Source: Bryobacterales bacterium
GTDB taxonomy: Bacteria > Acidobacteriota > Terriglobia > Bryobacterales > UBA6623
Assembly: GCA_965226385.1 (NCBI GenBank)
Contig: OZ245359.1
Location: 1,375,854 to 1,439,853, forward strand
Direction of reading: 5' to 3'
Length of the DNA stretch: 64,000 nt
Shown: piece by piece, positions 3,445 to 47,900 of the stretch
Layout of the letters: each line of letters begins with the position of its first letter
Position numbering within the stretch: position 1 is the stretch's first letter
The notes under the pieces: generated by a model
Database searches by the model: none
The model's input: only the letters and a program-made list of their open reading frames with translations
Told to the model about the DNA's origin: nothing
Translations under genes and position numbers: made by a program

Positions 3445-4596
3445 ATGGCAACTGACAGCAGTCCCGACTTTTACTCAAGGCTGAATGTCTCACGCGATGC
3501 GAAACAAGAAGTCATTCGCAAGTCCTATCGTCGACTGGCCCGGAAATATCACCCGGATGTCAATCCTGGCGACTCCGTTGCTGAGAAACGCTTCAAGGAA
3601 ATCCGTGAAGCCTATGATATTCTCAGCGACGCTAAAAAAAGAAAGTTCTATGACAAGTGGGGCTTTTACTCTGACCAGGCATACGCCCAGGGGAGCCGCG
3701 CAGGACCTGAGAGAACAGCACCTGGCGGGATCAACTTCGACGGTTTTGATTTTCCGGGTTATTCCGGGCAAACAGGGGGTAGCGGCGGGTTCGAAACCAT
3801 CTTTGATTCATTGTTAGGTCGAAGAAGGAGTTGGGCAGGGCAGGAGAAACGAACAGGTGAAGACCTCGAGTACTCCATGGAAATCGGCTTCGGGGAAGCC
3901 ATCAAGGGAACATCGGCTCGCCTGAACATCACACGACTCGCAAAATGCAGGCCATGTGGTGGATCAGGAACAACACGGGGAGCCAGTGCACAGGTCTGTC
4001 CAACCTGTAATGGTACCGGTCAAGGCCACCAACAGAGCCAGAACATGCGATTCAGTATCCCCTGCCCAACTTGCCGGGGACAGGGTTCGACTCTCAGCCC
4101 CTGTTCAAATTGCCGCGGAGAGGGTCGTACAAGCAAGAACAGTTTGATCGACGTGCGTATTCCCGCAGGCACCCAGGAAAACGGACGACTGCGTCTGCAG
4201 AGCAAGGGAAATGATGGGTTGAAGGGCGGACCACCTGGAGATCTTTACATCACAGCAGTTGTAGGCAAGCATCCTTTTTTCGAACGAAAGGGTTACGATA
4301 TTCACACTAAGGTTCCAATCACTCCGGCTGAAGCCATTCTGGGAGCAAAGATCGAGGTGCCGACCATTGATGGCACGGCCTTGCTCAAGATTCCACCAGC
4401 CACGAACTCGGGCAAGGTTTTTCGGGTTCGAGAACGAGGGATAAAACATCCCAACAGCGCTAAACGGGGACACCAGTTTGTGTGTATTTCGATCGTGGTG
4501 CCGGAAATTCCGGAAGAGAGTACCAAAAAACTGATGCAACGATACAAGGAACTCAATCCAGAGAATCCTCGTGAAAACCTGCTCGAGGAGTTTTGA
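3445..4596 (+). CDS. dnaJ: Co-chaperone DnaJ (class A, zinc finger)
   Basis: J domain with HPD, a G/F-rich region, four CxxCxGxG repeats (CRPCGGSG, CPTCNGTG, CPTCRGQG, CSNCRGEG) and the C-terminal GDLY domain. Confidence 0.97.
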   Translation: MATDSSPDFYSRLNVSRDAKQEVIRKSYRRLARKYHPDVNPGDSVAEKRFKEIREAYDILSDAKKRKFYDKWGFYSDQAYAQGSRAGPERTAPGGINFDGFDFPGYSGQTGGSGGFETIFDSLLGRRRSWAGQEKRTGEDLEYSMEIGFGEAIKGTSARLNITRLAKCRPCGGSGTTRGASAQVCPTCNGTGQGHQQSQNMRFSIPCPTCRGQGSTLSPCSNCRGEGRTSKNSLIDVRIPAGTQENGRLRLQSKGNDGLKGGPPGDLYITAVVGKHPFFERKGYDIHTKVPITPAEAILGAKIEVPTIDGTALLKIPPATNSGKVFRVRERGIKHPNSAKRGHQFVCISIVVPEIPEESTKKLMQRYKELNPENPRENLLEEF

Positions 4597-5039
4597 TGAT
4601 GGAGAGAAAGAACAGGATCAAGGGGTCCTACACGATCTCTGTTGTAGCGGAGCAGTTCAAGGTGCATCCACAGACCTTGCGGCTATACGAGCGAGAGGGC
4701 CTGCTACTGCCTTCACGCACTGAAGGCAACACGCGACTCTACACAGACAAGGACATTGAACGGCTGGACGTGATTCTCTCACTAACTAGGGACCTGGGAG
4801 TCAATCTTGCCGGGGTCGAGATTATCCTCAACATGCGCAACAAGATGGATGAGATGCAACGGCAGATCCAGGAATTTGTGCAGTACGTCAACAAGTCCAT
4901 GTCCTGGGCTGAGAATTTGAACGATGAAGAAATCTCGAATGCCTTGATCCCAGTCAAGAGCCGCCTGCCAGTACGCTCAAAGGCCAGTAAAGCAGAGGAT
5001 TCCCTTGTAAAACCAGGATTAAAAGCCAATAAATCCTGA
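4593..5039 (+). CDS. hspR: MerR-family heat-shock repressor HspR
   Basis: YTISVVAEQFKVHPQTLRLYEREGLLLPSRTEGNTRLY...GVNLAGVEIIL is the HspR signature. It overlaps the dnaJ stop codon. Confidence 0.9.
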   Translation: MMMERKNRIKGSYTISVVAEQFKVHPQTLRLYEREGLLLPSRTEGNTRLYTDKDIERLDVILSLTRDLGVNLAGVEIILNMRNKMDEMQRQIQEFVQYVNKSMSWAENLNDEEISNALIPVKSRLPVRSKASKAEDSLVKPGLKANKS

Positions 5040-7729: not shown

Positions 7730-8149
7730 AATTCTTCTTTGCGAGTATTAAGCATGTATGCAGTCAATGGTGATCCAGCTAAACTTAAACATGCACGATT
7801 ATTGCATTTTCAGGCAACTTGACCATTACAACGATCCACAGCTGCACCATTTCAAGTGTAATTCCAGTAACTGAGCAAATACCAGCATGCTATCCTACGG
7901 GGCAAAAGAGTTAACGGAGGTTCGTTCGGGTAGGCACTCTAAGCAAGCTACTGAATCGTGGATAAGGAGACTGGGTTTTAACCTTACCTGTCATGAGAAT
8001 TTGTGTGACCTGATTTTGCCCGAAATCAAGGAATTCCTTGAAATAAGATAACTGCTGTACAGTCCAGGATTGCAATATGATACGGCCCTGAAAATAGTAC
8101 CCCTGGAAGAGAGATTTTTTCGAGGGCAGAAAGTTAGATAGAGATAGTA

Positions 8150-9805
8150 ATGAACGATATTTCCCTGAACGAGAGTTCACAAGAGCCAACTCCGACTCGC
8201 GTACGAGAAGTGTTGCGATTGGGTGCAAAAGTTTCTAAGTCTGCCAGGGCTCGCAAGATCATACTGGATTGGCTGGAAGAGCGTAGTAGTCAAAAACTAC
8301 CCACAGCAGCCATTGACGGTGAAGGGTTTAACCAGGAAAAAGACGGCTTCCATTTCGCTGCCATCCAGATCAAGGGTGATAATTCAAATACTTGGGCCTT
8401 GCGGTATATAGAGCCAGAAGAAGATTCACCCGACACCATCTGGATTTATGAGATTGCCATCCGGGAACAGTCTGAAGGCGAGACCACATTCAGTCTGCGT
8501 ACCCTGATCAAGTCCTGCGAGAATAAACTGCGTCTTCAACCCGAAGTACCCAGCCTCGTGGATGACCTGATCAGTGAGTGCGGCTTGAAGCAAGGCTCTG
8601 AGGAAGTGGAAACTGGACCTTGGGTCGTGGATTCCGATGATGCCGTCGAGAACCTGATCGAATACCTAACCAGTCCCAAGCGACAGATACCTGCAATCGT
8701 GATCACTGTCCCAGAAGAATCCGAGGATCCGGAATCAACCTTGCTCGACCCCGTGCCACTCGCAGAGTCCACCATCGGAATTGCTAAGGTCATCGTGCTT
8801 CCCGCCAATCACACCTGGAAGCTGACCAACCGCTTCGGAAAACGGTTATCAGTCTACAGGGGTGCAGTTCGCCTTTACCTGCCTGGATTCAAGGTAGAGG
8901 AGGATTCGGAAACCGGACACAACCTGTTCCTTGCAGCTCGCATGGAAACCCCTGAAAATGCCAGAACAGTCGAGTCGTTGCTGCGTTGGCTGGTTGCTCG
9001 CGAGAGCCTCAAGCAATTTGATCTCGGCAAGGATATCATTTCCTTTGCTTCTGTCCTGCTCCAGTCTGTTGAGCAACAGCAGGGCCTACTTGAGAAAAAG
9101 GGATCCAGCAACGAGTTGGTTGCTGCTGCCAAGGAACTTATTCCATTGCTGAGCGAGGAGCTGAGCCAATCGATATACATACAGCAGGGGCTAGAGCACG
9201 AACATTCTATGGCTGAAGAGCGGGCTAAATCCTTCGAAGCAAAGTGGAAAGCTTCGCAGTTTCGCTCACAGCGATTCCAGCGACCAACGGAGAGTGGTTC
9301 CCGTTCATACCAAGGGGGGTACAACAAGCCAAGTGGCTCTTATGGAGACGACAGACGTGACGACAGACGTGACGACAGACGTGACGACAGACGTGACGAC
9401 AGACGTGACGACAGACGTGACGACAGACGTGACGACAGACGTGATGACAGACGTGATGACAGACCACCTCGTGGCTCTTATGGAGAAAACAGACCACCTC
9501 GTGGCCCCTATCGTGGAGACGGTGGGGGCAGACCCCGATCCTCCTTTGACAACGACAGGCCACAGTACTCCCAAGGAAATGACCGTAGACGGTTTGATCG
9601 TAGTGATCGGGAAGGCGGCGGCAATCGTGGGCCTCGGGACTTTGAAGGCGGCAGGAGACGGCCGCCATCATCCGGTGACGGTAGCGGCGGTGGGCGTCGA
9701 AAGTTTGATGATGGACCTCGCAATCGTGAGAGGGACATACCTAAGCCGCAATACAACCGCAAGCGCTTTGCCCCAGATTTCGAGCAAGAAGACTTAGATG
9801 AATAG
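8150..9805 (+). CDS. Hypothetical protein: globular N-terminal region, coiled coil, and an Arg/Asp/Gly-rich low-complexity C-terminal tail
   Basis: 551-aa ORF. About 370 aa look folded (PAIVIT...GIAKVIVLP...SVYRGAVRLYLPG), followed by about 175 aa of (DDRR)n and RG/RD-rich sequence. Confidence 0.85.
   Translation: MNDISLNESSQEPTPTRVREVLRLGAKVSKSARARKIILDWLEERSSQKLPTAAIDGEGFNQEKDGFHFAAIQIKGDNSNTWALRYIEPEEDSPDTIWIYEIAIREQSEGETTFSLRTLIKSCENKLRLQPEVPSLVDDLISECGLKQGSEEVETGPWVVDSDDAVENLIEYLTSPKRQIPAIVITVPEESEDPESTLLDPVPLAESTIGIAKVIVLPANHTWKLTNRFGKRLSVYRGAVRLYLPGFKVEEDSETGHNLFLAARMETPENARTVESLLRWLVARESLKQFDLGKDIISFASVLLQSVEQQQGLLEKKGSSNELVAAAKELIPLLSEELSQSIYIQQGLEHEHSMAEERAKSFEAKWKASQFRSQRFQRPTESGSRSYQGGYNKPSGSYGDDRRDDRRDDRRDDRRDDRRDDRRDDRRDDRRDDRRDDRPPRGSYGENRPPRGPYRGDGGGRPRSSFDNDRPQYSQGNDRRRFDRSDREGGGNRGPRDFEGGRRRPPSSGDGSGGGRRKFDDGPRNRERDIPKPQYNRKRFAPDFEQEDLDE
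9347..9463 (+). repeat. 12-bp coding tandem repeat (GACGACAGACGT)n encoding DDRR
   Basis: Eight perfect GACGACAGACGT units, one GATGACAGACGT and a partial tenth unit. Flanked by duplicated GTGGCTCTTATGGAGA at 9333-9348 and 9471-9486. Confidence 0.98.
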
Positions 9806-21216: not shown

Positions 21217-22937
21217 CCCGACCTTCTCACGAGTCTTAGATTCGGAGGCGTTTTGTCCATTTGGGGTGGATGGATAGCCTGGCAATGTTGCGTGGGGCGT
21301 CGGATCCGGGCAGATACCTGGTAAGGGTCGCCAGATCCGCGGTTGTTGGGGCTTGTTTTCGCTTGCAACCCGCCCTGCAGACGCACTGATCCCCGGCGAC
21401 CTCCGACGGGGCTCGAGACGATGGCTGGAGTGCAGCTGCTAACAGCGCAGGGGCAGGCTCTGGAGACGGGCCAACACCTGCCTGAAGAGGCCCGCTTCAG
21501 GGAAGCCCTCGTCGAACGACAGCCGCACGGCCCGCACGCTGACCCGGATCCGCACGCCGATCTTGAGCAGCTTCAGGCGGATCGTGCCGCATTGCGCCCG
21601 CGCCAGCCGCGTGCCCGACAGGCCCCAGCGCCGCAGTAACTCCAGCAGCGCGTAGGCGAACGAGGCGAAATACAGGCGCAACTGGTTGGCCCGCATCGTC
21701 TGCGCCGAGGTGCGATCGGCGAACAGCGCCAGCTGCTGTTCCTTGATGCGGTTCTCCATATCGCCCCGCGCGCAGTACACCTCCTCGTAGAGCGCGCGCG
21801 CCGCCATCCGCTCGGCCCCCAGCGACGTCACCACGAAGCGCGGGTTGGCCCCCCGCAGCAAATGCTCCGCCTTGCCGATCACGCGCCGCTCGCGGCTCCA
21901 GCTGTCCAGCGTCCGGTAGCGGAAGTCCTTGAACACCCGTGCCGCCTGCCCCGTCCGCTCGCATTCCTGCCGGGCCCGCTCCAGCTCCGGAGCCAGGCTC
22001 CGTTTCAAGCGCGGGTTCTGCGCGATTCCCAGCACATACTCCACCCCCTGCGCCTCGCACCAAGCCAACAATTCGTCGCGGCAGAACCCGCTGTCCCCGC
22101 GCAGCCAGATCGCGACCCCGGGCCAGCGCTTCCGGATCCGCCCCACGATGCGCTCCAGCTCCTCCACCGTGCCATCCGCCGCGTCCCGGTCCGCCGTCCG
22201 CAGGCGCGCCCCCAGCAACTGCTGGCCGCAGAAGATATAGAGCGGCAAGTAACAGTAGCTGCGATAGTACCCATGGAAGAAGCGGCCTTCCTGGCGGCCG
22301 TGCAGGGGATCGTCCGTCGCGTCCACGTCCAGCACGATGCGCTCCGGCTGCTCCCCGTGCCAGTCCAGGAACAGGTCCACCAGCAGGGCATCCAGCCGCG
22401 CGGTGTCCGCCACGATCTTCTTGTAACGTTCGCCGGCGTCCAGCGCCGGCCCCGTCAGCTCCAGCCGGTTCAGCGTGCTCTTGCCCGGCGGCAAACGCTC
22501 CCAGCTCGCCCTGCGCCGTCCCCGTCCTACCGCCCCGCATAGCAGCGACCACAGCTTGCTCTGGCGCAACGTGTCGTGATCGATCAAGTCCTCGTAGCCC
22601 AGCGCCAGCCCCAGCACGCGCGCTGCCACCAGCACTTCCACCGGATGCTGCGTCCGCTGCGGGTCGCGGTGATCCCGGAAACACGCACTCAACCGCCGGA
22701 ACAGCCCCGTCCGCTGCGCCAGCTCCCGCAGCAGCAGCCCGCCGCCATCCGACCCGAGCTCCCCGCCGTCAAACCGACCGACTACACGCTGCCTTCGAAA
22801 GCGTTCGAATTCCAGTCGTTCCGTGGTACACTCTGTAGTCATAAGGTCGTCGTCCTTCTACGTGGTAAGTTGTTCATAATAAACCAATTATACCACGAAA
22901 CACGGCCTTATTCTCTACCTCTGGTGAGAAATCCGGG
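21217..22937 (-). mobile_element. IS1380-family insertion sequence, apparently complete
   Basis: Imperfect terminal IRs CCCGACCTTCTCAC / GTGAGAAATCCGGG (11/14 match). CTAG occurs on both flanks (21213-21216 and 22938-22941). Sharply higher GC than the host sequence. Confidence 0.9.
21439..22842 (-). CDS. IS1380-family DDE transposase
   Basis: FDGGELGSDGGGLLL, LGYEDLIDHD, VLDVDATDDPLHG, LRGDSGF, RGDMENRIKEQQL; uninterrupted 467 aa. Confidence 0.95.
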   Translation of the reverse strand: MTTECTTERLEFERFRRQRVVGRFDGGELGSDGGGLLLRELAQRTGLFRRLSACFRDHRDPQRTQHPVEVLVAARVLGLALGYEDLIDHDTLRQSKLWSLLCGAVGRGRRRASWERLPPGKSTLNRLELTGPALDAGERYKKIVADTARLDALLVDLFLDWHGEQPERIVLDVDATDDPLHGRQEGRFFHGYYRSYCYLPLYIFCGQQLLGARLRTADRDAADGTVEELERIVGRIRKRWPGVAIWLRGDSGFCRDELLAWCEAQGVEYVLGIAQNPRLKRSLAPELERARQECERTGQAARVFKDFRYRTLDSWSRERRVIGKAEHLLRGANPRFVVTSLGAERMAARALYEEVYCARGDMENRIKEQQLALFADRTSAQTMRANQLRLYFASFAYALLELLRRWGLSGTRLARAQCGTIRLKLLKIGVRIRVSVRAVRLSFDEGFPEAGLFRQVLARLQSLPLRC

Positions 22938-44990: not shown

Positions 44991-45060
44991 AGTCTACGAC
45001 AAGCCCCACAGCATGCGCAGCACCCAATCCGAGACCTGATAATTGCCCGTCAGAGCTAGT

Positions 45061-46485
45061 CGGAACTTCACCATCCCTTAAGCCCTAGCGCCGTCCACCA
45101 AATCATTGCAATAGCGCGGTTTACCGCTCCACAGACCGGACTGAAAACTGGATATTTGTTGCCATGTTCTGAGCGCACAATAATCTTTATTCATGCTTTA
45201 CTCACAGCATAACCATGTTTCATACTGTTTCCATGTAAGAGGCCTCGCCCTATGTCCTACCACGTCGACGTCATCCCCAACCGCAACAGCCCCCCCGCCA
45301 TCCTCTTCCGTCAAGCCCAACGCGACGGCAAGCGCATCCGCCGCACCACCCTCGCCAACCTCTCCAAACTGCCCCCCCAGATCGTCGACGGCACCCGCAG
45401 CCGCAGGCGTGACCTCGCCCTCGCCGCCATAGTCGCCCACGTGCTCCAACCCGGCTCCAAGCTCGCCACCGCTCGCAGCCTGTCCCCGCAGTCCGCCACC
45501 AGCAGCCTCGGTGCCCTGCTCGGCCTCGGTCCCGTCCGCGGCAACGAAATGCTCGACATGCTCGACTGGCTGCTGGGGCGGCAAGCGTGGATCGAGAAGA
45601 GCCTCGCCCGACGGTATCTCGAGGGCGCCACCCTGCTGCTCTACGATGTCGCGTCCAGCTATCTGGAGGGGCGCTGTTCTCCACTGACCGCGTTCGGCCA
45701 CAACCACGACGGCAAGCAGGGCAAGCAGCAGATCGTCTTCGGCCTGCTCTGCGTGGCCGTAGATGTGTTCGCCGGCAACACGGCGGATCCGAGCACGGTC
45801 GGGGTGCAAGTGAAGAAGGTCCAGCAGCGCTTCGGCCTCGAGTCCATCGCGCTGGTGGGCGATCTCGGCCTTGAAGACGGACGCCATCCGCAAGCTGCTG
45901 CGGGAGGCGCAGCTGGACGGCATATACGTCATCCGGACGAGCCTGCAGAGCTCCGCCCTGGGGGCTCCCGAGGCGGTCGAGGCCTACAAGAGCCTGGCGC
46001 ACGTCGAGCGGGCGGTGCGCCCGATCTTCGTCTATAGCGAGGACCATGTGCGCGGGCACATCCTGCTGTGCATGCTGGCGTATTACGTGGAATGGCACCT
46101 GCGGCGGCGTCTGGCGCCGCTGCTGTTCGAGGAGGAGGACCGGGCGGGAGCGCGGGCGCTACGGCAGTCGCCGGTGGAGAAAGCGCAGGTCTCGGCGAGC
46201 ACCAAGGCCAAGGCCGCCAGCAAGCAGACGCCCGAGGGGCTGCCCGTGCACAGCTTCCAGACGCTGCTGGCGGATCTGGGCACGCTCACGCTGAACGAGG
46301 TGACGCTGCCGGACGCCCCGCAGCACCCGTTTCCGATGGTCGCCAAGCCGACGCCGCTGCAGGCCAAGGCAGTCGACTTGCTCGGGGTCGATCCGAGCAA
46401 ATTTGTTGCCAGTAAATTGGCAGGTTGATTCAGTCTATCTGTCTGATATAGCTACGATTATTCGAATTTCGGAGGTGAAGTTCCG
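45061..46485 (+). mobile_element. IS1634-family element with intact ends and an internally deleted transposase
   Basis: Perfect 12-bp IRs CGGAACTTCACC / GGTGAAGTTCCG, with a 6-bp direct repeat GCTAGT at 45055-45060 and 46486-46491. High-GC interior. Confidence 0.9.
45252..46428 (+). pseudogene. IS1634 transposase, frameshifted and with several internal deletions
   Basis: IPNRNSPPAILFR...TLANLSKLP, LYDVASSYLEG, QIVFGLLC and VGD lie in one frame (45252-). LDGIYVIRTS...HVERA, VRGHILLCMLAYYV lie in another (45871-46428). Confidence 0.88.
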
Positions 46486-46690
46486 GCTAGTGGGCAAAAT
46501 GCAACAGCGACAGAAGGCTCACAGAAAACCTGACAGGGCCCAAATTCGAGAATCTCAGCGCTGAAAGGTGCGTCCAAACCGGCCGGATTGCAGGGAAGTC
46601 AAGACACACGCGCCGAATGCCACCGTAACCACCCACGCCAAACCCAGGTCTGCCAGCGGCTAGTCCCGTGGATACACGTAGCCCAGCTGA

Positions 46691-47515
46691 TCACTCAGTC
46701 GGGGCATTCGTTTCCTCGTGCTTCCGCTCCAGTTCGGCGGCAAGACGCTCTTCAAGGCGCCGCACCCGTTCATCGGACTGCTGCCGTAACTCCGCTTCCT
46801 GTCGGGCCCGTTCATCGGCCTGTCGAGCCCTGGTTTGTGCCTCCAGCTTGGCCCGTTCTCCTTCACGAGCGCCCAGTCCACGTCGGCTCCCGTTAGAACT
46901 TCCTGCCCGGTGGCGGGGTCCCGGAACGCCGCCACCGTTACGTCCTCAGACCACTTGGCCCGCAGGTGCAGTCCCAGTGCCTCGCTCCAGTACCACTCAC
47001 CTGCTTCCTCTAACTCGACCCGCTCCAACTGCTGATACCGGCCGCCCTGCAAGCGGTACCCCTCCAGGGACGACTCCAAGTGATGGACTCTTGGGCTCAG
47101 CCTCCAGTACTCACTCACACCCATCCGTGCATAGATCTCGGGCTTTACATCCCGGTCCCGCCACTCCGTTGATGCAGACCTCACCTCCAGCACGAAATCC
47201 GGCGCCTTGCCTTCCTCCCACACCTTGTAGGTGTCCCGCTCGCCAGTCTCCACGTCAAACGCCACGAACACGTCCGGTGCCAGCCACGCCTTGTTATTGC
47301 CCTTCTCGTAATACACGAACAGGTCGATGCCGATATAGAGATCCTTGCGCTCACGGAAGCAGCGGTCTAACGCCTCTTTGGCGAGAACCATCGCGACGGC
47401 CTGTCAACCGGATTCAGCCATTGCCAAGCCGTCCGAACTGGGGTATTCGACCGCCGCCGTTTCCTCGACAGCGGTCTCCAAGGCGGCCGGAATCAAAGAC
47501 TGCAGCACAGGTTCC
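46691..47515 (-). pseudogene. Uma2 (DUF820)-family endonuclease pseudogene
   Basis: EYPSSDGLAMAESG* (TGA at 47404-47406), then LAPDVFVAF...APDFVLEV...YARMGVSEYW. A frameshift near 46860 separates the coiled-coil tail ERAKLEAQTRARQADERARQE...APTE*. Confidence 0.85.
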
Positions 47516-47900
47516 ACCTGCTCAGTATATAGACTGGGGGGCGTACTGGATCGCAACCACACCGGGAATCTCAAAGTCAGCTACTCCTCGATCAGGGGCT
47601 GCGACTGGTGTGACGGGATCAGACATCTTGTCACACTTGATGCATAGGAGTTTTCGGCAGGATGGGCACCAAATTCAGACAGGCGGGCACCCAATACCCA
47701 TCAAGTGCTGGCGCTATGGGCTCTCGACAGCCGACAGGCCTGGTTCCAGCCCGCTTGGAGTAGCAAGACGCGACACCGCCAATGCGACAGAGCGGGGATC
47801 CGCACGGCATGGCCTGGGAGACTAAAGCCCTGTAGTCCCACGAGTTGCCTCATCCAGGCAAGCGAGCATTGAGTCAAGGGATCAGGATGTCTGAGCCCAG

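Follow-up and report, generated by a model that had tools for sequence, protein, structure and literature searches.

A gene in a 64,000-nucleotide stretch of a Bryobacterales (Acidobacteriota) genome (assembly GCA_965226385.1, contig OZ245359.1, positions 1,375,854 to 1,439,853 of the forward strand; hereafter the window) encodes the sensor module of the anti-phage protein HEC-07, in which the C-terminal toxin domain is missing and a long, disordered, arginine-rich tail stands in its place. Homolog searches, a phylogeny, gene order and codon comparisons together make it very probable that the toxin domain was swapped out once, in an old event that is now fixed throughout the genus. As to function, we lean towards regarding this tail form as a repurposed derivative of a defence protein, with sensor and long helix intact, the toxin domain gone and the Arg-rich tail instead. 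An earlier note on this DNA, written from the sequence alone, had singled out the same gene; its claims are taken up below with the results that bear on them.

Family membership and domain architecture

The gene is complete and present as a single copy in its genome. Its product matched PADLOC model PDLC04161 (HEC-07) over residues 10-379 (E = 1.7e-93, 312 bits), and the other three HEC-07 models (PDLC04158-04161 set) matched as well, with E values from 1.8e-29 to 4.3e-14. HEC-07 is an "Hma-embedded candidate", a single protein that reduces phage plaquing in E. coli; as described, it begins with an AdoMetDC-like domain, continues with a thioredoxin-like one that lacks CxxC and ends in a RelE-family RNase whose conserved His is H543 in the assayed protein (Payne et al. 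2024, bioRxiv 10.1101/2024.01.29.577857). The RelE label used here for the canonical C-terminal domain is taken from that preprint. The match of the window protein covered profile positions 14-394 of 553 only, whereas canonical relatives spanned the full profile. The earlier note had pointed, correctly, to a likeness between the N-terminal part and a defence-associated family that continues into a RelE-like effector; HEC-07 is that family. Scans of the 551-aa protein against Pfam, NCBIfam and PHROGs gave nothing useful, and a PDB sequence search gave noise only.

An AlphaFold2 model, built on a 62-sequence homolog alignment, had pLDDT confidence scores of mostly 84-96 over residues 12-380, which form two alpha/beta domains and a helical segment, and below 50 at every residue from 381 to 551. 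Together with the composition of the tail described below, this bears out the earlier description of a globular part that gives way abruptly to an R/D/G-rich end. Fold recognition on the folded part, which that note had proposed, was informative mainly for domain 2: Foldseek matched it to thioredoxins (probability 0.97-1.00, target template modeling [TM] score 0.5-0.65), and the region holds no Cys pair. Domain 1 (pLDDT 73-95; secondary structure E17-28, H31-46, E60-122, with E for strand and H for helix) gave a weak match to START/Bet v 1-like folds (E ~3e-3, target TM ~0.3); the first domain of HEC-07 is the one labelled AdoMetDC-like by Payne et al. The most conserved block of the family, TWKLTNRFGKRLSVYRGAVRLYLPGF (residues 222-247), lies inside domain 2, as do 37 of the 58 positions conserved across both the tail and RelE forms. 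Three helices follow (residues 268-289, 299-317 and 321-376), the last of them 56 residues long. Compared as a whole chain with the PDB by Foldseek, the tail form had zero matches at E <= 0.001.

Two C-terminal architectures occur in the family. A first homolog search, in a set of 5.8 billion proteins, returned 61 clusters, and an exhaustive search of 1.84 billion representatives brought the family to 1,420 members (E <= 0.001), so the protein is not the orphan it had been taken for. The aligned clusters split into 48 with a low-complexity tail and 14 with a globular C-terminal domain of ~155 aa that carries "...CLRIYYFWD...VIIASMPAH". The 48 tails range from 1 to 179 aa, with an approximate composition of 25% R, 12% D, 15% G, 13% P and 8% Y and a hydrophobic fraction of at most 0.21. 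Outside the tail clade, 148 representatives were listed: 116 had the RelE-type domain, 24 were fragment-like or ended soon after the N-terminal region, and eight ended in different stretches of 49-152 aa whose hydrophobic content was unremarkable, some of them possibly partial genes. None of these 148 had an Arg-rich tail of low hydrophobicity. RelE therefore appears, from sequence, to be essentially the sole effector of the family, and the tail the only alternative among the 150 matches listed.

Homology with RelE-bearing relatives stops right after R372 (near nucleotide 9265), which coincides with the switch at "...RFQRPTES" pointed out in the earlier note. R372 itself is shared by both groups, and conservation of positions 373 and 376 is confined to RelE forms. 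Of 64 positions with at least 90% conservation among RelE forms, 58 carry the identical residue in the tail clade, which shows that the sensor module has been maintained. A tblastn search with four RelE-type domains, in all frames of the window and of 28 tail-form loci, found nothing; the same search recovered the domain in 17 of 17 RelE-type loci used as a positive control. One locus considered as a non-syntenic tail form (L029) proved to hold the canonical RelE form. The replacement of an effector by a tail, as the earlier note had proposed, is thus real and left no RelE remnant, but it is not particular to this protein: homologs within the clade routinely carry such tails, in the 48 nearest clusters and in all 31 genomes of the genus.

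Distribution, single origin and selection

Genus and order tallies were made on GTDB representatives searched with the HEC-07 profile. Each of the 31 genomes in the window's GTDB genus carried one tail-form copy (profile positions ~13-387). In the rest of the order, matches were found in 18 of 270 genomes and consisted of full-length forms only. Ten of the 31 genus genomes also had full-length RelE copies elsewhere, and 21 had the tail form only (E <= 1e-20). The named tail-form loci belong to metagenome-assembled genomes (MAGs) of Bryobacterales, several of them from sponges; RelE forms came from Alphaproteobacteria, Vicinamibacteria and other groups. No paper describing the tail-form clade was found in a literature search.

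Across ~28 compared tail-form loci, the neighbours were identical on both flanks, in the order thiE-like gene, dnaK, dnaJ, MerR-family gene, SNF, SDF transporters, tail-form gene, SDR, sulfatase, recO and PDZ protein. None of the RelE-type loci compared shared any neighbour with the window. No defence gene adjoins the tail-form gene, and its setting is one of housekeeping genes, not the accessory or defence island with which the earlier note had associated the family.

A maximum-likelihood tree built on the shared region placed 48 of 48 tail forms on one side of a single branch (ultrafast bootstrap/SH-like approximate likelihood ratio test [UFBoot/SH-aLRT] 100/98), and one change of architecture was sufficient in 200 of 200 bootstrap trees. 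The sister group of the tail clade consists of alphaproteobacterial RelE forms. A sister genus (g2) keeps the SNF-SDF-SDR gene order, has a 3-keto-disaccharide hydrolase gene at the tail-form site, and carries its RelE copies hundreds of kilobases from that site. The hydrolase at the site and the distance of the RelE copies argue that, in the ancestor of the genus, the gene arrived at the site or displaced another gene there. Conversion of a RelE form at the site itself was considered and rejected, given this distance and with no RelE-bearing intermediate found at the site. The g2 gene (L063 2499-3806 and L064 2952-4172), which lies between those for the SDF transporter and the SDR, encodes a two-domain 3-keto-disaccharide hydrolase (PF06439) that is apparently secreted.

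Purifying selection acts on both parts of the protein. The ratio of nonsynonymous to synonymous substitution rates (dN/dS) was computed from one multiple alignment, with close pairs at dS of 0.11-0.4 and ~105 aligned tail codons; among these pairs it was 0.06-0.10 in the folded part and 0.05-0.25 in the tail. Between the window protein and that of the relative L057 (96% identical) it was 0.34 in the folded part and 0.30-0.34 in the tail, from small counts. Because dN/dS is low across the aligned tail codons, the tail is evidently translated and constrained.

These results also settle how the gene should be filed. Its N-terminal ~370 residues (domain 1, thioredoxin-like domain 2 and long helix) are homologous to those of HEC-07. 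It differs in lacking the ~155-aa C-terminal domain, with an Arg-rich disordered tail instead, and in being a syntenic, genus-wide gene where HEC-07 is accessory and defence-embedded. Since it has neither the RelE domain nor an accessory setting, we classify the tail form, on homology, as a HEC-07 homolog and not as a HEC-07 system. To the RelE/ParE toxins of type II toxin-antitoxin systems it is tied through the ancestry of its gene family only; unlike them, it has no RelE-type domain in any frame and no adjacent antitoxin-like gene.

Two further loci were recorded. A sponge MAG labelled Chloroflexi holds a tail form (L026 7020-8384, contig VXPS01000130.1) 84% identical to that of the Bryobacterales locus L020; its 14.9-kb contig shows no synteny and carries no second gene of Bryobacterales type. 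Either the gene moved horizontally from one sponge symbiont to another, or the contig is chimeric or was assigned to the wrong bin. The window's own genome contains a second, distant HEC-07-like gene that is decayed, in contrast to the intact tail form (G000:C1:4148195-4149534, where G000:C1 denotes our coordinates for this genome; L056 4854-6568, minus strand). There, an N-terminal piece is split from a coiled-coil plus RelE-like piece, an internal stop is present, and transposase-like open reading frames (ORFs) flank the gene (L056 3744-4700 and 6624-7319).

The tail and its possible role

The window tail is composed of 26% R, 19% D, 14% G and 9% P, with a hydrophobic fraction of 0.06, a charged fraction of 0.51, a net charge per residue of +0.04, 8% aromatic residues and seven RG/GR dipeptides. 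In composition and predicted disorder it is of the arginine-rich mixed-charge/RGG type. Lysine is scarce: K/(R+K) is 0.08 in the tail vs 0.51 in the folded part of the same protein, and the preference for Arg over Lys is for this reason not a codon-bias effect. Across the tail clade the median charged fraction is 0.41 and the median K/(R+K) is 0; every tail has a positive net charge per residue (+0.02 to +0.26), and 11% of the residues are aromatic (mostly Tyr) and 0.6% are Ala.

Of 47 tails, 40 contain a short motif, [RK]P[RKQ][YF], compared with 3.4 +/- 1.8 in composition-preserving shuffles. The shortest tails extend ~19 aa past R372 and consist of little else than the motif. The longer ones have, in addition, lineage-specific tandem units, among them (GYDRESR)n, (EDRGRPSF)n, (GGGGYRQ)n, (RGERRPDY)n and one 24-residue unit, which differ in sequence and share one composition. 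The window tail has two copies of the motif, and its arrangement of KPQY followed by an acidic end is common to the subgroup of P0017, P0023 and P0025 (RPKPRYSQYGEDDDD...).

The window's own repeat is a (DDRR)n array, detected by Tandem Repeats Finder as a 12-nt repeat, GACGACAGACGT, with 9.8 copies at 99% match (positions 9347-9464). The nine DDRR repeats counted in the earlier note are a real array, although there are 10 units, of the form DDRx, and their number is strain-specific: the 99% identical protein of L058 has three units and the 96% identical protein of L057 has two. We read the array as a recent in-frame expansion by slippage; the difference in unit number fully explains the 28-aa difference in length from the close relatives.

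Among the 7,034 ORFs of the 4.43-Mb genome, the tail holds the most extreme R/D/G-rich 50-aa segment. The other four R/D/G-rich segments in proteins identified by Pfam belong to PNPase, RNase E/G, Rho and bS18 (Table 1), and the genome looks, from these sequences, to have a general habit of adding such disordered regions to proteins that handle RNA. A sulfatase-like protein, so read from its sequence alone, also ends in an Arg-rich tail, ...RGGRQRRGDREQGTRRRRQNRESRGQGNQ (G000:C1:3317254-3318708, plus strand); among the proteins with such tails it stands apart, as the others handle RNA.

Under the repurposing that we favour, the tail form would still recognise whatever the HEC-07 sensor recognises and would self-associate through the long helix, while the multivalent Arg/Tyr tail would attach to RNA, to ribosomes or to some other polyanion, or else enter a condensate of RNA and protein. 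The effect would be sequestration or scaffolding that does not kill the cell, instead of mRNA cutting and abortive infection. That the tail acts by binding RNA, ribosomes or other polyanions, or by condensation, is a mechanism we put forward tentatively, by analogy, at somewhat less than even chances. The more specific version, in which a domesticated sensor (or its ligand) is recruited by the Arg/Tyr tail to condensates containing RNA or ribosomes, is rather doubtful.

U1-70K and NELF-E are examples of arginine-enriched mixed-charge proteins. The tail resembles the mixed-charge domains of nuclear speckles (e.g., that of U1-70K) in its alternating Arg/Asp, its use of Arg over Lys, its near-neutral to positive charge and a length set by repeat number. 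The likeness is one of composition and not of homology, the window protein is bacterial, and most members of the tail clade have RG/Y/P-rich rather than pure R/D repeats. In eukaryotic cells, R/D repeats condense in a manner that depends on length and on Arg and is tuned by net charge (Greig et al., bioRxiv 10.1101/771592). A bacterial comparison is offered by RNase E, whose disordered regions build bacterial ribonucleoprotein bodies, or BR-bodies (bioRxiv 10.1101/272286; PMC10412687). The RNase E C-terminal domain, like the tail, is a charged, Arg-rich disordered region of low hydrophobicity attached to a folded module; the folded module of the window protein, unlike that of RNase E-type proteins, is a defence-type sensor and not an RNA enzyme or recognised RNA-binding domain.

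Several observations weigh against this interpretation. The resemblance of the tail to RNA-binding tails is an analogy of composition rather than homology. The whole synteny block is preserved as one unit, and for this reason the neighbours give no clue to function. The window protein, together with P0002 and P0003, forms the deepest and longest branch of the tail clade (0.86), and the proximal tail sequence of its lineage is unlike that of the other members. On the side of the toxin, a profile of the canonical C-terminal domain, compared with Pfam and with PDB sequences, showed no relation to RelE/ParE, and a whole-chain Foldseek search of the canonical protein P0049 against the PDB gave nothing at E <= 0.001, with RelE not listed; the domain does have an invariant Arg, Tyr-Tyr and His in our alignment, which we take to be compatible with a RelE-type site. 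Finally, a fully conserved sensor fits a protein still active in defence equally well.

This last point leads to an alternative that we consider unlikely, namely that the protein is still anti-phage and that a triggered sensor releases the Arg-rich tail as a non-enzymatic effector. The tail would then coat or condense phage nucleic acid or jam ribosomes, with stoichiometric inhibition in place of mRNA cleavage. The near-full conservation of the sensor relative to active defence relatives (the 58 of 64 positions above) and the retained long helix suit such a role, a slightly acidic folded part and a net basic tail would permit auto-inhibition, the fast turnover of repeats between lineages could reflect an arms race, and HEC-07 is itself a stand-alone, single-gene defence. 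Against it stand the distribution and the evolution of the gene: it is found in 31 of 31 genus genomes and at one syntenic housekeeping site in ~28 compared loci, with no adjacent defence genes, in contrast to the patchy and non-syntenic RelE forms, and the tail dN/dS of ~0.1 is purifying, not diversifying, at short range.

It is very unlikely that the tail form serves as a dominant-negative brake, lowering the toxicity of RelE-bearing HEC-07 paralogs through the shared long helix. Most of the genus offers such a brake nothing to act on: 21 of the 31 genomes have, at E <= 1e-20, the tail form alone, and there it is intact under strong purifying selection. The remaining 10 genomes do carry at least one full-length RelE copy, the window's own genome holds the decayed canonical-type relic described above, and helix and sensor are conserved between both forms. 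However, the RelE paralogs that occur alongside the tail form fall in a distant subclade, with ~33-37% identity and a long inserted linker, all of which makes heteromer formation less likely, and a brake would give the conserved Arg-rich tail and its motif no role.

It is hardly credible that the gene is a truncated, degenerating defence gene or an artefact, with a 3' end made of junk read-through, of a RelE domain out of frame or of a join in the assembly. The tail is of low complexity, ranges from 1 to 179 aa among relatives and has an unstable repeat array, but the junction is identical in three independent close-relative assemblies and at ~28 other loci, RelE similarity is absent in all frames by tblastn, dN/dS is ~0.1 over ~105 aligned tail codons, all indels are in frame, and the motif is conserved well above the expectation from composition. 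The assembly and tblastn results likewise contradict the join or frameshift at the junction that the earlier note had allowed for.

Feature coordinates, other features of the window and significance

The features of the gene, and the other proteins of the genome with comparable regions, are collected in Table 1.

Table 1. Coordinates of the tail-form gene, its parts and other R/D/G-rich proteins of the same genome (window positions unless prefixed G000:C1)
Feature	Coordinates	Strand	Description or basis
Complete HEC-07-family gene, tail form	8150..9805	+	ORF and PADLOC PDLC04161; 551 aa plus stop
Domain 1, ~residues 12-130	8183..8539	+	Alpha+beta; one helix on a five- to six-stranded antiparallel sheet
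Domain 2, ~residues 131-265	8540..8944	+	Thioredoxin-like fold without CxxC
Helical region and long coiled-coil-like helix, residues 266-372	8945..9265	+	AlphaFold2 and alignment
Disordered Arg-rich polyampholyte tail, residues 373-551	9266..9802	+	Replaces the RelE-type domain
(DDRR)n array, ten 12-nt units, eight identical	9347..9466	+	Unit-by-unit DNA comparison
First motif copy RPQY, residues 469-472	9554..9565	+	Coordinates derived from tail offset
Second motif copy KPQY, residues 531-534, then acidic C-terminus ...FAPDFEQEDLDE	9740..9802	+	Tail listing
PNPase	G000:C1:4132950-4135406	-	C-terminal (GGGGSRDS)n Arg/Asp/Gly tail
RNase E/G	G000:C1:1621733-1624165	+	Arg/acid-rich insertion, ~380 aa
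Rho	G000:C1:2778086-2779864	-	Arg/Glu/Asp-rich N-terminal extension, ~180 aa
bS18	G000:C1:1955902-1956366	-	Arg-rich N-terminal extension

Upstream of the tail-form gene lies a 54-aa ORF without a Pfam match (window 7887-8051, plus strand), which gene callers placed in the two closest relatives (L057 and L058, 2738-2902 in both). It was considered as a partner or antitoxin and rejected; the ORF is not kept in other members of the genus, nor is the DNA upstream, and for this reason it is probably a spurious call. A scan for promoters and terminators around the gene gave counts within shuffle expectation, with none on the plus strand.

Farther upstream, a MerR-family regulator (window 4593-5039, plus strand) directly follows dnaK-dnaJ and shares 4 nt with the end of dnaJ. 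This layout, kept in ~24 compared loci, recalls HspR-type heat-shock operons. A transposase-like ORF of 467 aa (window 21439-22842, minus strand) lies in a patch of 63-65% guanine-plus-cytosine (GC) content, in a window that otherwise has ~51% GC, and probably represents an insertion sequence gained recently. Window positions 45000-47800 form another GC-rich patch (57-63%), which is not a copy of the first; no direct or inverted repeat of at least 60 nt links the two patches.

The tail form is a candidate case of a defence gene co-opted for another role, for which architecture, single origin, synteny and selection have been measured. It amounts to a natural separation-of-function variant of HEC-07, in which the toxin was lost and the sensor kept over the long term. 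A sensor without its toxin should be non-toxic to express and purify, and could thereby offer a route to the ligand of the HEC-07 sensor. The natural series of tails, from 19 to 179 aa, combines different repeat units with one composition and one short motif; with 2, 3 and 10 DDRR units in near-identical proteins, it is suited to tests of Arg-rich sequence grammar in bacteria. If the proposed role of the tail is correct, slippage of the DDRR array (2 to 10 units in near-identical strains) would be a fast tuning knob for the strength of condensation, and the tail form would be both a natural bacterial example of a defence protein turned host scaffold and a parallel, in bacteria, to the mixed-charge condensate domains of eukaryotes.

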